Below are positions 1,077 to 5,471 of a stretch of 64,000 bases of DNA, piece after piece (the stretch's first letter is position 1; each line of letters starts with the position of its first letter). This stretch comes from a virus, in IMG/VR virus record IMGVR_UViG_3300036770_007999, positions 1-64,000 of that record, one strand, 5' to 3'. The notes below the pieces were generated by a model that had not been told where the DNA came from, did no database searches, and saw only the letters and a program-made list of their open reading frames with translations. The position numbers and the translations under genes were made by a program.

Positions 1077-1105
1077 TTGACAGTAGACGTTGTAAGTGTT
1101 ATACT
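1077..1105 (+). promoter_or_regulatory. sigma70-type promoter for rpoZ
   Basis: TTGACA-17 nt-TATACT. Confidence 0.85.
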
Positions 1106-1131
1106 GATGCGTTACTAAACAGGAGTGTATC

Positions 1132-1371
1132 ATGGCAAGGATATCCAGTGAACTGGCAGCACGTGCAGTAGGCAGCAAATATGATTTGATCCTGATCGCG
1201 GCCCGTAGAGCACGTGAACTGAACCGCGGGTGGCGACCCACTGTGACCTGCGACAATGGCGCTGTGGTCACGGCCTTGCGGGAGATCGAAGCTGGCAACA
1301 TCGGCAGAGACTATCTGCTCAAACCGCCCACCCTTGATCGCCGTGAGCGGCCGCCTGAATCTGATCGTTGA
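1132..1371 (+). CDS. rpoZ: DNA-directed RNA polymerase subunit omega
   Basis: MARIS..., SKYDLILIAARRAREL and VVTALREIEAG match the omega signature; AGGAG RBS. Confidence 0.9.
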   Translation: MARISSELAARAVGSKYDLILIAARRARELNRGWRPTVTCDNGAVVTALREIEAGNIGRDYLLKPPTLDRRERPPESDR

Positions 1372-1738
1372 TCCATGGTCAAGCCTGTGAGAGAAAGCAG
1401 GCTCGCCACCATCCCAACTGTGAGGGAATATTTACCACCCTGGGCTCTGCTGTAGCCGTTATTGGCCGTGCTCCGTGGCTGGAGATGAACATGCCGCAGG
1501 GGAATGTCAAGGTCAGGTTGGTAGCCTGGCAAAGGCTGGTTTGACCAGCATTGGCATCTTAAACACAGCACAGTGGGCTTGACCATGGATCCAGGGCAAT
1601 GCTGATAGTCAGTCGGGCATGATGTATCCGGCCCGGGCCTCTAGCCCCCATGATATATAACTGACATGGATCAACAGCGATGTCAGGGTCTGCAAAGCCC
1701 GCAGGTGCATCGGAAGCATCGGCCTCTCGCTGCCATGG
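1367..1738 (+). ncRNA. Candidate structured non-coding element bounded by inverted repeats
   Basis: Perfect 16-bp inverted repeat 1370-1385/1576-1591, a third arm at 1662-1675, internal hairpins with G-U pairs, no convincing ORF before 1666. Confidence 0.5.
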
Positions 1739-1755
1739 CCTTCGAGGAGACAGAG

Positions 1756-1917
1756 ATGAGCATCAAAGGATTGAAGGAAGCCCTGGCCAAAAAACAGGCA
1801 CAGCAACATCCAGACGGCACTGTGAAAGACAGTATCGGAGCCAAAATCACACCTACTGCACCTGTGCGAGTAGGTGGCAGCAAACCCCAGAAAAAAGCCG
1901 CTGGCAGAGGACGCTAG
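1756..1917 (+). CDS. Small basic hypothetical protein (alternative start at 1666)
   Basis: GAGGAG at 1744-1749 before ATG 1756; Lys-rich; ends KKAAGRGR. Confidence 0.7.
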   Translation: MSIKGLKEALAKKQAQQHPDGTVKDSIGAKITPTAPVRVGGSKPQKKAAGRGR

Positions 1918-1959
1918 AGTCCGGCTCTTTTCTGACTACACAAAAGAAAGGAGCATGAT

Positions 1960-2568
1960 ATGCCAGCCGTATTCTTAGTTTCAGACACCCACTTTGGACA
2001 CGCCGGGGTGTGCAGATTCACCCGCGCAGATGGAACCAAACTGCGTCCCTGGACCGATCCCGACGAAATGGACGAACATCTTGTTAAAGTCTGGAACGAG
2101 CGTGTTAGACCCCAAGATAAGGTTTATCACCTCGGAGACGTGGTGATCAACCGTAAGGCCTTGCGTACCTTGAGCCGACTCAACGGTGACAAGGTGTTGA
2201 TCCGCGGCAACCATGACATTTTTCGCGATGATGAATATCGTGAATACTTTCGTGAACTGCGCGCCTACCATGTGATGAATGGTATGATCCTCAGTCACAT
2301 TCCTGTCCACGAAGCCAGTCTTGGTCGTTTTGGTGTGAACATACACGGACACCTGCACTACCAGCGTGTGAAACGTGCCCGCGGGGTCAATGCCAAAACC
2401 GGAGAAATCTTGTATTCCGATGACATTGACACGCGTTATCACTGTGTGTGCGTGGAGCAAACTCCGGACTTTGCACCAATCCTTTTTGAAGATATCATAA
2501 AGAGGATCAAAGCAGAAGGCGGCACGGTGGGATTCCGCAACGGTAATGGCCCCCAGGGAGCGGATTGA
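1960..2568 (+). CDS. Calcineurin-like metallophosphoesterase
   Basis: DTHFGH, HLGDV, GNHD and HGHLH metal-binding motifs. Confidence 0.92.
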   Translation: MPAVFLVSDTHFGHAGVCRFTRADGTKLRPWTDPDEMDEHLVKVWNERVRPQDKVYHLGDVVINRKALRTLSRLNGDKVLIRGNHDIFRDDEYREYFRELRAYHVMNGMILSHIPVHEASLGRFGVNIHGHLHYQRVKRARGVNAKTGEILYSDDIDTRYHCVCVEQTPDFAPILFEDIIKRIKAEGGTVGFRNGNGPQGAD

Positions 2569-2570
2569 CC

Positions 2571-2735
2571 ATGGCCATGAAACTCTGGGAAGCCACTGTC
2601 CGCCAGCCAGGTCCTGGCACTGCGGAAATTCGGGTGCGTATCGGGGCCGAAACCGCAGAAGAGGCACGCAGGTTGTTGCAACAGTTACACGGTCCAAGAT
2701 CGGTGCCTTATCTGCCCAGACAGGTACCGCAGTAG
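2571..2735 (+). CDS. 54-aa hypothetical protein (MAMKLWEATVRQ...PRQVPQ)
   Basis: Hand-translated; starts 2 nt after the upstream stop and ends immediately before the tmRNA promoter. Confidence 0.65.
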   Translation: MAMKLWEATVRQPGPGTAEIRVRIGAETAEEARRLLQQLHGPRSVPYLPRQVPQ

Positions 2736-2747
2736 TAAATAGTAACA

Positions 2748-3034
2748 TCGCTGTATGAAGCGAAGCAAAATGTGTTCTGGACGCGGGTTCGATTCCCGCC
2801 CGGTCCACCATAAGCATGTTCTTTGAGGTCTTGGTCGTTACCAGCGTGGCGAAAACGGCGACAGAGCATGCTTATGATGGGCCGGATCTGGTTTCGACAG
2901 GGCAAGCAGTAGCAGAGTGGACAGCGGGGTAGGCGATGACCCTAAATCAAGCAAAACCACAAACGCCAACGACGAGCGTTTCGCACTGGCCGCTTGAGCC
3001 TGCTGAGGGTGGAAGCCCGAGAAACAGAACTTCC
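2748..3034 (+). ncRNA. ssrA: Circularly permuted (two-piece) tmRNA, tag ANDERFALAA
   Basis: T-arm and ACCA end (2779-2810) come before the GGGCCGGATCTGGTTTCGAC 5' end (2879); G3:U70 pair; tag ORF 2965-2997; outer boundaries are approximate. Confidence 0.93.
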
Positions 3035-3062
3035 AAAGCCCGCTCTGGCGGGCTTTTTTTTT
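3035..3062 (+). terminator. Intrinsic terminator of the tmRNA
   Basis: AAAGCCCGC-TCTG-GCGGGCTTT followed by a T run. Confidence 0.9.
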
Positions 3063-3226: not shown

Positions 3227-4567
3227 TTGGATCTACCTCTCCTGTTGGCCATGCTGAGTGGCTGTGGCATCGGCATAGTGATCGGCCTGTTTCCGGGCTT
3301 TTCGGTATTGGCCGCGATGCTGATCCTGTTTCCGTTCCTGTCTTCGCTGGATGCCATGTCAATACTGGTATTCTATGCGGCACTGATGACTTCGGCCCAG
3401 TACTGCGGCAGTATCACGGCCACATATTTCGGTGTGCCTGGCGAGAACACCAGCCTGGTGGCCAGCAAAATTGGTTATCGCATGCATACCAGAGGTTGCA
3501 CCAACTTGGCTATTGGCAGCGCGTCAGTGAGCAGTTTCTTGGCCTCGGCGGTGGGTCTGGCACTGATGTGGTTGATCTCACAGCAACAACAACTGTTCAG
3601 CGGATTCTATTCGGTCAAGATCCAGTTGGCCGCCATGCTGTTTGTGGCAGTGTTCCTGCTGATCTACAGCGGCAACAGGATTGCGCACAACACCTGGATG
3701 ATACTAGTAGGTGCCCTGCTGGGTGCCATTGGCTCACATCCTATACAGGCCTATTCTCTGACCTTGCAATGGGATCTGTTGGGACCGGGCCTGTCCATAC
3801 CACTGGTGCTGACCTTGTGTTTCGTGATCCCAAATCTTCTGAGATACCAAAACCGCGGCGGTGCCATCACCAACCCGGCGACCCGATCCATAGACCGATA
3901 CTGGACAGCGCTAATCCTGTGCTGGCGCAATCGCTGGTCGGCCTTGCGTGGCAGCGTGATAGGCAGCGTGATCGGACTCATGCCCGGCGTGGCCATCCTG
4001 GCCAGCAGCACCTCCGCCTATGGGGCCGAACGGCGCATAACCACGCGCAACACAGCGCATCTCATGGCCGCGGAAGCTGCCAACAACAGCGCAGTGGTCA
4101 TGTGTCTCATGCCCTTGATCCTGTTTGGTGTGCCTGTGATCGCCAGCGAATCCATGGTACTGAGTCTGTTGTTGCAACAAGGTGTGCAAATCAACTTGCT
4201 ATGGATGCTGCAATCATACACTGCCGACCTATCTCACCTGGACATCTTGATGCTGACATTGATTCCAATCAATGTGCTGATGTTGATCATGGCATGGCCA
4301 TTGTCGCGCGTGTTGATATCGGTGTACAGCCGCATCCCGATGTGGTGTATGACCAGCGTGATATATGTGGTGTTAGCGGCCGTGATCGTGGCAGATTCTC
4401 TTGCCAGATTGAGTTGGCAAACCGATATTGCCAGTTTGATTGTGCTAGTTCCATTATGCTGGATCATGATCCGTCACAGGCACGATGGGTTACCGTTGGT
4501 GTTCAGTTTTTTGTTGGCTGAACACGTGATCGGTTTGTTAGTAGTAATGAGTGATTTATACTTTTAA
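3227..4567 (+). CDS. tctA: Tripartite tricarboxylate transporter TctA-family permease
   Basis: Polytopic and hydrophobic; GLFPG, YCGSITA...GVPGE, GSVIGLMPG and AAEAANNS..PLILFGVP motifs. Confidence 0.88.
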   Translation: MDLPLLLAMLSGCGIGIVIGLFPGFSVLAAMLILFPFLSSLDAMSILVFYAALMTSAQYCGSITATYFGVPGENTSLVASKIGYRMHTRGCTNLAIGSASVSSFLASAVGLALMWLISQQQQLFSGFYSVKIQLAAMLFVAVFLLIYSGNRIAHNTWMILVGALLGAIGSHPIQAYSLTLQWDLLGPGLSIPLVLTLCFVIPNLLRYQNRGGAITNPATRSIDRYWTALILCWRNRWSALRGSVIGSVIGLMPGVAILASSTSAYGAERRITTRNTAHLMAAEAANNSAVVMCLMPLILFGVPVIASESMVLSLLLQQGVQINLLWMLQSYTADLSHLDILMLTLIPINVLMLIMAWPLSRVLISVYSRIPMWCMTSVIYVVLAAVIVADSLARLSWQTDIASLIVLVPLCWIMIRHRHDGLPLVFSFLLAEHVIGLLVVMSDLYF

Positions 4568-4580
4568 AAAGGAAAAAGCA

Positions 4581-5471
4581 ATGAAAAAAATATACAATGT
4601 TGTGGCCGGTCTGCTGTTGCAGATTCCACTGTTGGCCTGGGCACAAGGAGTGACCTACTTCAGCATGACCAATCCAGACACACCTCATCTGTCAATCACG
4701 GCAGGCTGGATCAAGGACATAGAACAAAACATGCCCATAGACTGGAAAAAAGGCCTGGGCTGTGGTGGCAAAAGGAACGTGGTCAATCATGATGGACCCA
4801 TGTTGGTAGAGATACCTTCGGGCCGTATGTGGTCCAGCCTGCATGACGGCAATGAAGACTGCCTGTTTGACTGGCGACCCAAGACCATCGTGAGCCTGTT
4901 TTCCTATCCGTTTGACATGTGTGTCAAGGCCGACAGTGCTATCCAGACCTTCCAAGACTTTGCTGCCGCCACATCGGTCAAGATTGGCTATCCCACTGCC
5001 ACCACCAATGCCTACTGGGTCAATGCCTACAACGCCCATAACCGTACCCAGCATCGTGGTGTGATGTTCCGGAGCAGCGGTCTTGCCCTGCTGGGTCTGT
5101 TGTCCGGTGACATCGATGTGGCCATCATGGCCAATCTCGTGAGCCAGAACCAAAAAAACGCGCAAAACATCAGGTGCTTTGCCACCACAGCACCCAACAC
5201 AGCCACCAGCCTGTCCAAGTTGACCCCTTACATCCCGCAGCAGATCAACGAATTCCAGCAGACTTTCGCGCTGTTCGCCAGCAATATCACTGAGAGTAAT
5301 CTGGCGAGCATCCAAGACTCGGTGCACCGGTCCGTAGTGGCACTCAAAGACAAACTGCCTGCATCAGTGACTTTCGCAGTGGTAGGCAAAAACATCTCAC
5401 CTGATGAGGCCAAGGCTTTTTATCAGACCAATGTGGAAGACCTTGCCGTGGCCACGAGAAAACTGCAATAG
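4581..5471 (+). CDS. TctC/Bug-like periplasmic substrate-binding protein
   Basis: Signal peptide ending AWA-Q; ALLGLLSGDIDVA motif; adjacent to tctA. Confidence 0.7.
   Translation: MKKIYNVVAGLLLQIPLLAWAQGVTYFSMTNPDTPHLSITAGWIKDIEQNMPIDWKKGLGCGGKRNVVNHDGPMLVEIPSGRMWSSLHDGNEDCLFDWRPKTIVSLFSYPFDMCVKADSAIQTFQDFAAATSVKIGYPTATTNAYWVNAYNAHNRTQHRGVMFRSSGLALLGLLSGDIDVAIMANLVSQNQKNAQNIRCFATTAPNTATSLSKLTPYIPQQINEFQQTFALFASNITESNLASIQDSVHRSVVALKDKLPASVTFAVVGKNISPDEAKAFYQTNVEDLAVATRKLQ

Follow-up and report, generated by a model that had tools for sequence, protein, structure and literature searches.

What is the roughly 220-nt stretch that lies directly behind the gene for the omega subunit of RNA polymerase (rpoZ) in a phage genome, closed by a long inverted repeat and apparently coding for nothing? 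The DNA in question, here called the window, is the first 64 kb (positions 1 to 64,000) of the 78-kb IMG/VR virus record IMGVR_UViG_3300036770_007999, whose CheckV completeness of 22% means that it is a jumbo-phage fragment. A first-pass annotation had pointed to a structured non-coding RNA co-transcribed with omega, possibly a 6S-like decoy of RNA polymerase (RNAP), or alternatively to an invertible DNA segment. Comparison of related loci leads us to propose, with moderate confidence, that positions 1370-1591 of the + strand are the gene for a discrete stable RNA, which would be matured together with tRNAs and would act through a knotted core. The repeat is as perfect over 16 bp as first described, GATCCATGGTCAAGCC (1370-1385) being the exact reverse complement of 1576-1591, and it is the sole inverted repeat of at least 16 nt within 400 nt in the window, for which we estimate a chance expectation of ~0.006 (64000 x 400 x 4^-16). 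Its placement directly after rpoZ is likewise correct, since the last two bases of the rpoZ TGA stop codon (1369-1371) are also the first two of the repeat arm.

As the first-pass annotation had suggested, homologues were gathered and examined for covariation. A search with the omega protein yielded six related loci, and in three of them the element is present at 80-90% identity. These three copies and that of the window served to build a covariance model, which then found diverged copies in other phage records, and a pattern of invariant core bases retrieved further copies from IMG/VR and metagenomes. In total, 24 copies scoring 46-275 bits were recovered from IMG/VR and metagenome contigs, one per record, and the 23 distinct ones were aligned and showed strong covariation. 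For the metagenome pattern scan we estimate ~10 chance matches, and 9 of the 24 loci that it gave failed the model. The core pattern matched 4 contigs among 185,579 cellular species genomes, none passing the model at E 0.01, and blastn with two family members against 50,697 cultured-phage records gave no match; an earlier 1.6-kb blastn query had matched tRNA-Arg alone in cultured phages. The Rfam scan that had also been proposed placed no family over the element even at E<=10 (window positions 1100-2000 and 7 homologue loci), at gathering thresholds only tRNAs and a beta-type two-piece transfer-messenger RNA (tmRNA) were found in the whole window, and literature searches found no description of the family. 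The family is real and, judged from these searches, is an uncatalogued one carried by uncultured jumbo phages.

The boundaries of the element coincide with the repeat. In alignments of close relatives (80-90% identity), conservation begins and stops exactly at the arms of the closing helix, P1, and the flanks diverge. In four metagenome runs, contigs with differing upstream sequence have loose ends clustered at 1368-1374, so that the element occurs behind varied upstream sequence and starts at P1. In four metagenome runs from soil, freshwater and the subsurface, the summed depth of the contigs rises at the P1 arms (1370-1396 and 1559-1612) to peaks that are 5-10 fold above the level at rpoZ, and many related phages in these samples therefore share those segments.

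The RNA predicted from 1370-1591 (+ strand, as are all elements of the fold given below) is ~222 nt long and has an elaborate conserved architecture. Its closing helix P1 pairs 1370-1386 with 1575-1591 over 17 bp, namely the 16 perfect pairs of the repeat and U1386-G1575, and the 3' strand is backed by both the exact repeat and covariation: 93.6% of the cells pair across the 23 copies, double changes occur in 15 of the 17 pairs, and in locus L024 and the most distant members the P1 sequence is wholly different with pairing retained. Within this helix, which elsewhere covaries freely, the step C-A-U(-G) at 1374-1377, paired with (C-)A-U-G at 1584-1587, hardly varies (columns 10-12/294-296) and could be a determinant of recognition or cleavage. 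P1 is followed by the unpaired junction strand GUGAGAGAAAG (1387-1397), with the consensus GUGnGnGAAAG and invariant columns in the 23 sequences. Further on, GCCA at 1405-1408, the proposed 5' strand of a pseudoknot PK2, is invariant in 21-22 of the 23 copies and precedes the hairpin P3 (1412-1427), in which UCCC and GGGA enclose an 8-nt loop and pair in 100% of cases. This loop contains ACUGUG (1417-1422), complementary to CACAGU at 1569-1574, which is continuous with the 3' strand of P1. The resulting 6-bp pseudoknot PK1 was spotted by inspecting conserved "unpaired" bases and was not part of the model used for search and alignment. It is paired in 23 of 23 copies with double changes in three of its six pairs, occurring in the family as ACUGUG/CACAGU, ACUGCC/GGCAGU, ACUACC/GGUAGU and ACUGCU/AGCAGU, and it takes the place of a GUG/CAC pairing offered by RNAalifold that breaks in 6 copies.

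The middle of the RNA is formed by a domain of four helices (1435-1501), introduced by a conserved CCA (1435-1437); CCACCC is one of the invariant single strands of the family. P4 (1438-1442/1497-1501), P5 (1449-1453/1489-1494) and the hairpins P6 (1455-1457/1464-1466) and P7 (1471-1474/1481-1484) are 88-100% paired, with double changes in three of three pairs of P6 and in four of four pairs of P7. The P7 loop presents an invariant UGGC (1476-1479), complementary to GCCA, and PK2 (GCCA/UGGC) is paired in 95.4% of cells with no covariation. Since both strands are invariant and do not covary, this candidate second pseudoknot is unproven. A peripheral domain (1502-1557) follows, consisting of the stem P8 (1504-1510/1551-1557; 97% paired, double changes in 6 pairs) and the hairpins P9 (1511-1530; 91.5% paired, double changes in 6 pairs) and P10 (1535-1549; 100% paired, double changes in 5 pairs). 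This domain is variable, P10 being missing in 8 and P9 in 2 of the 23 copies, so that its tRNA-like appearance is not conserved and a tRNA-like cloverleaf at 1502-1557 was ruled out. The fold is completed by the single-stranded and nearly invariant linker CUUAAACACAG (1558-1568), with the consensus UCUUAAACAC when U1557 is counted, which leads into PK1 and P1. Among the inner stems named in the first-pass annotation, TCCC/GGGA (1412-1415/1424-1427) is P3 and stands, and the remaining ones do not hold: ATGCC/GGCAT, TGCTGT/ACAGCA and AGCCT/AGGCT pair in 56%, 67% and 58% of cells across the 23 homologues, and GGTCAGGTT/GGTTTGACC, although 81% of its cells pair, is displaced by the far better covarying P9 and P10.

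Statistically, the fold is well separated from chance. In the alignment of 23 sequences, 94.7% of the cells of predicted pairs can pair and 44 of 65 pairs have changed on both sides; none of 500 shuffles reached this value, and sliding the partners by 1-3 columns reduced pairing to 32-43%. Once PK1 and PK2 are added, pairing holds in 95.5% of 1520 cells and compensatory double changes are seen in 47 of the 70 pairs, again with 0 of 500 shuffles as good and with slid controls at 31-42%. The same data bear on the strand. The earlier remark that G-U pairs favour the + strand is borne out by many U-G and G-U cells, and the model scores ~264 bits on the + strand against ~19 bits on the - strand; on this sequence evidence, the + strand is the RNA strand. 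Minimum-energy folding gave -94.9 kcal/mol (z -3.2) for the + strand and -88.7 kcal/mol (z -3.4) for the - strand. As both strands fold better than their shuffles, folding energy cannot pick the strand and covariation alone does so. The statement that no credible open reading frame (ORF) is present also holds, as variation by codon position (0.67/0.58/0.69 bits) has no three-base periodicity, 11 of 23 homologues lack an open frame across the element, and the indels in its arms (2-19 nt) are not multiples of three.

The genomic setting suggests where such an RNA belongs. In 23 of 23 loci the element lies inside a phage tRNA/tmRNA cluster and on the tRNA strand. Its association with rpoZ is looser: the gene is found within ~450 nt upstream in 16-17 of the 23 loci, it is not within 3 kb in 7, and in G004 it lies 2.4 kb downstream of the element. 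The gene is thus often, but not necessarily, a neighbour of the element. Its position in the arrays varies as well: it may follow rpoZ or tRNA-Thr, stand between two tRNAs or come directly after a promoter of its own. The downstream neighbour also differs, being tRNA-Arg in four loci, a membrane protein gene in L024 and a spacer in the window. In these four loci (L033, L034, L035 and L055) the last P1 pair is followed without a gap by the first base of tRNA-Arg, so that RNase P cleavage at the tRNA 5' end would create the 3' end of the RNA, and in L035 the end of tRNA-Gly lies 4 nt upstream of P1. In five loci (L051/L052, L045, L050 and L038) the encoded CCA end of tRNA-Thr shares bases with the start of P1; a mature tRNA and a full-length P1 hence cannot both come from one transcript, which may reflect competition or an ordered processing step. 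Locus L032 (1721-1760, - strand of the locus) contains a perfect sigma-70 promoter, TTGACA-17-TGcTATAAT, which ends 4 nt before P1 and would start transcription at about its first base. The start codon of a phosphoesterase gene follows there 16 nt past P1, a compact promoter-RNA-gene unit unlike the layout of the window. Taken together, the flush tRNA-Arg junctions and the dedicated L032 promoter argue against a general need for RNase III in setting the ends of the RNA. In the close relative L003 (3230-3661; the same locus as L022), a 143-codon ORF separates rpoZ from an intact element, and the phosphoesterase gene has been relocated upstream of rpoZ; gene cassettes are shuffled here around an RNA that stays whole.

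In the window, the predicted transcription unit is compatible with the inferred co-transcription with omega. A probable promoter at 1077-1105 (+ strand; TTGACA-17-TATACT with TG, 11 of 12 matches, called from the consensus match alone) is the sole strong promoter upstream of the element, and the sole + strand terminator-like site (3035-3056) lies 3' of the tmRNA. The element would therefore be co-transcribed with omega here and then excised or retained in the transcript, and the promoter probably drives a unit of rpoZ, the RNA, a small basic protein gene, the phosphoesterase gene and the tmRNA. The suggestion of a structured + strand RNA transcribed along with omega, made in the first-pass annotation, is thus upheld by the strong covariation and by this layout.

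As to mechanism, we propose that the RNA is made within phage tRNA/tmRNA transcripts and, as the gene layout suggests, is released by tRNA-maturing enzymes; in front of a tRNA, the RNase P cut at the tRNA 5' end would make the 3' end of the RNA. P1 and PK1 could stack into a helix of ~23 bp, and P1, PK1 and P3 into a rod against which the A-rich junction strands would pack, giving a rigid knotted core. The freed RNA would act in trans, most likely as a protein-binding RNA, with the core binding a putative protein, of host or phage, that serves RNA processing, translation or transcription, by analogy with the stable ribonucleoproteins (RNPs) of other ornate RNAs. Several observations weigh against this proposal. 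In the window and in close relatives, mRNA (rpoZ and the small basic protein gene) and not tRNA adjoins the RNA on both sides; as neither flank is a tRNA, release in the window would need RNase III acting on the P1-PK1 helix, RNase E or a similar enzyme. Excision is assumed for the window, where the RNA may instead have a cis role in the transcript. In addition, the conserved unpaired bases would suit a ribozyme or a ligand pocket equally well, PK2 shows no covariation, and Ro60/TROVE (PF05731) was not found in G000-G005, six partial records that are 2-60% complete. Among the alternatives to a trans-acting RNA, cis action on the transcript ranks above catalysis, and catalysis above ligand sensing.

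A cis-acting element of the tRNA/tmRNA operon transcript is thus the alternative to be taken most seriously, even if we consider it rather unlikely. HK022 put RNAs modify RNA polymerase and cause processive antitermination, and the element might be a put-like antiterminator of this kind, or else a processing or insulation module protecting rpoZ and the downstream messages. It always resides within long structured polycistronic units on the transcribed strand, in the window downstream of the promoter at 1077 and upstream of the only terminator-like site, at 3035, and rpoZ is often close upstream. However, its array position differs among loci, flush tRNA junctions would cut it out of the transcript, seven loci have no rpoZ nearby, and its size, 222 nt including two dispensable peripheral arms, far exceeds that of put RNAs. 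Catalysis, by a self-cleaving ribozyme that cuts the tRNA array or by a trans catalyst acting on tRNA-like substrates, appears quite improbable to us. It would account for invariant unpaired junction bases around a pseudoknotted core and for ends that abut tRNA ends exactly, and the GAAAG and A-rich strands by a long-range helix next to P1 recall the J3/4-P4-J2/4 region of RNase P. In its favour, too, small "theta" ribozymes resembling that of hepatitis delta virus neighbour phage tRNAs (PMC10879173). On the other hand, no self-cleaving ribozyme or RNase P model matched at E<=10 in the window or the 7 homologue loci, AGAUGAA, which looks like CR-IV of RNase P, varies within the family, the order of strands differs from that of P4, and beside tRNAs, RNase P and tRNA 3' processing already account for the ends.

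Ligand sensing has still less to recommend it, and a riboswitch-like sensor for a downstream gene, be it the small basic protein gene (1756-1917) or the phosphoesterase gene, seems to us a long shot. The complex fold with its conserved core, the L032 layout, in which a perfect promoter precedes the element and the phosphoesterase start codon follows it, and a phosphoesterase gene no more than 3 kb away in 13 loci (downstream in 12, upstream in one) would fit such a role. Against it stand the variable downstream neighbour, including the 165-nt spacer in the window, the lack of an expression platform (terminator or alternative structure sequestering a ribosome-binding site) adjoining P1, and a 17-bp P1 that is far too stable for a switching helix. 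We give very little credence to the 6S-like, RNAP-binding decoy tied to omega that the first-pass annotation raised as attractive for its size and neighbour, if speculative: a length of ~220 nt, a long closing helix and a frequently adjacent rpoZ are indeed present, but the fold is a multi-branched double pseudoknot with no bubble between two long helices, no 6S model matched, and rpoZ is not present within 3 kb in 7 of the 23 loci and lies 2.4 kb away in G004. The least probable explanations, which we regard as next to untenable, are a DNA-level element (invertible segment, cruciform or attachment site) and a small protein gene on the - strand (1311-1586). The repeat is perfect over 16 bp, and a 91-codon - strand frame is open in the window and in about half of the homologues. 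Yet G-U covariation in the arms would give A-C mismatches on the opposite strand, the inner helices and the pseudoknot between an inner loop and the base of the 3' arm covary as well, no recombinase gene is adjacent (the neighbours being rpoZ, the small basic protein gene and the phosphoesterase gene), and contigs of four metagenome runs contain no strand-changing joints, a weak argument as contigs drop rare forms. The - strand frame, in turn, lacks codon periodicity, is interrupted in 11 of 23 homologues and runs antisense into rpoZ. Both ideas, including the inversion raised in the first-pass annotation, appear already refuted as far as sequence can show.

Given that the stable, trans-acting RNA is the reading we prefer, its relationship to known RNAs is of particular interest. 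By genomic setting, the nearest analogues would be RNAC and RNAD of phage T4 (species 1 and 2 stable RNAs), small non-tRNA RNAs of the phage tRNA region that share transcripts with tRNAs and have no known role (PMC3014915). Like them, the element lies within a phage tRNA cluster and on the tRNA strand, whereas it is larger (~222 nt) and pseudoknotted, and the likeness is one of setting. By architecture, the nearest analogue appears to be the raiA motif RNA (RF03072), the function of which is still unknown; its P1 is split into P1a/b/c by conserved GU/GGU bulges, its P3 is kinked (P3a/P3b), the P3 loop pairs with the P5-P6 linker (PK1), and the P4-to-P1 linker forms PK2 (PMC12968392). Both RNAs measure ~200 nt, and share a closing P1 formed by the ends, a multi-way junction with an optional P2, a P3 hairpin loop engaged in a 6-bp pseudoknot, a further, short pseudoknot, a junction strand of the GAA(A) type behind P1, and variable peripheral arms around a conserved core. 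In the element, however, P1 is a continuous 17-bp helix without GU/GGU bulges, P3 is a plain 4-bp hairpin without a kink loop, PK1 joins the P3 loop to the strand entering the 3' arm of P1 instead of the P5-P6 linker, and PK2 would link the 5' junction strand to the P7 loop. In addition, raiA RNAs occur in Firmicutes and Actinobacteria and the element in phages of probable Betaproteobacteria. With no RF03072 match at E<=10 and with P1 bulges, P3 kink and pseudoknot wiring all different, identity with raiA was rejected.

Other known RNAs were compared and likewise set aside. 6S RNA (RF00013) resembles the element in length, in its long terminal helix and in the adjacency of an RNAP-subunit gene in many loci, but the element combines 10 helices and a pseudoknot in a multi-way junction and lacks a central bubble resembling an open promoter, and this difference in architecture, together with the missing 6S match, excludes identity. 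Y RNAs are known from some phages that carry tRNA and tmRNA genes (PMC4201824). The element shares with Y RNA/YrlA (RF02553) a long helix of the 5' and 3' ends, and its domain at 1502-1557 resembles, in the window, a cloverleaf without an anticodon arm. In contrast to YrlA, the tRNA-like arm P10 is absent from 8 of the 23 copies and P9 from 2, with loops that are not conserved, which rules out identity; RF02553 and RF00019 had no match in the window, and weak YrlA matches in homologue loci (19-25 bits, gathering threshold 69) fell on tRNAs and never on the element. RNase P invites comparison because the element lives among tRNA genes and has a long-range helix directly 5' of the P1 3' strand, flanked by the conserved A-rich GAAAG and AAACAC. 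Here, however, the 5' strand of that helix is a hairpin loop and does not follow GAAAG, equivalents of P2/P3 or P15 are missing, and the CR-IV look-alike is not conserved. Of the short RNase P look-alikes GAGAGAAAG, AGAUGAAC and ACAG..GGCUU, AGAUGAA is variable in the family and GGCUU is part of P1. With the motif order wrong, these motifs not conserved and no match to the bacterial or archaeal RNase P models (E<=10; window and 7 homologue loci), identity with RNase P was rejected. A retron msr-msd RNA was discarded as well, as the downstream ORFs contain no reverse transcriptase domain and tRNA-Arg comes next in four loci.

The surroundings of the element in the window consist of an RNA-gene cluster that fills the first 3 kb, with five tRNAs, an RNase H-like ORF, rpoZ, the element, the small basic ORF, a metallophosphoesterase gene and the tmRNA. 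The rpoZ gene (1132-1371, + strand), the upstream neighbour that lies outside the RNA, encodes a genuine omega subunit (PF01192, E 1.8e-12; TIGR00690, 44.8 bits against a cut-off of 23.6). The small basic ORF (1756-1917), preceded by the ribosome-binding site GAGGAG and separated from the element by the spacer already mentioned, encodes 53 amino acids with the C-terminal end KPQKKAAGRGR, and no family was found for it in Pfam, PHROGs, NCBIfam or the ESM Atlas. Sequence of this region lies 3' of the RNA in ~10 close loci, which is a DNA similarity of the region and not a protein match, and in L007 a clear protein homologue (MPIKGLKE...) adjoins rpoZ. That the small basic protein might be an RNA-binding partner of the element is pure speculation. 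Between the two, a third arm at 1662-1675 (within 1640-1680) contains CATGGATCAAC (1665-1675), which is exactly complementary to 1367-1377 because the outer part of P1 (GATCCATGGATC) is palindromic. A block CCCCCATGATATATAAC..ACATGGATCAAC near 1640-1680 is kept in L003 and L004 and not in L002, and may be a promoter or leader of the small basic gene, not a switch partner. The tmRNA (2694-3059) is of the two-piece, permuted betaproteobacterial type (RF01850, 158 bits; RF04321, 140 bits) and therefore suggests a betaproteobacterial host; relatives have one or two copies. Directly past the cluster, 3227-5471 holds a TctA-like ORF (446 aa) and a TctC/Bug-like ORF (306 aa), judged from the ORF translations alone.

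Few large RNAs have elaborate, conserved folds, and those of known function are mostly central machines, such as RNase P, tmRNA, the signal recognition particle RNA, riboswitches and ribozymes. The element is a well-supported case of ~220 nt that is specific to uncultured jumbo phages and located among tRNA and tmRNA genes, with no entry found in Rfam 15 or in the literature searched. With a structure backed by covariation, a proven PK1 and exact ends, it is ready for synthesis, structure determination, cleavage assays and pull-downs. For annotation, our findings correct the notion that the element belongs functionally to rpoZ, and for phage biology they add to the puzzle of non-tRNA stable RNAs in phage tRNA clusters, of which T4 RNAC and RNAD are the precedent. 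A bolder possibility, which we put forward only as a doubtful one, is that a new phage RNP or ribozyme has the element as its catalytic or scaffolding RNA and targets the translation or tRNA machinery, or RNAP, during infection; such a particle might process or protect the phage tRNA/tmRNA set or neutralise a host defence that targets tRNAs. If that were true, the element would represent, beyond an orphan motif, a new functional class of large RNA.
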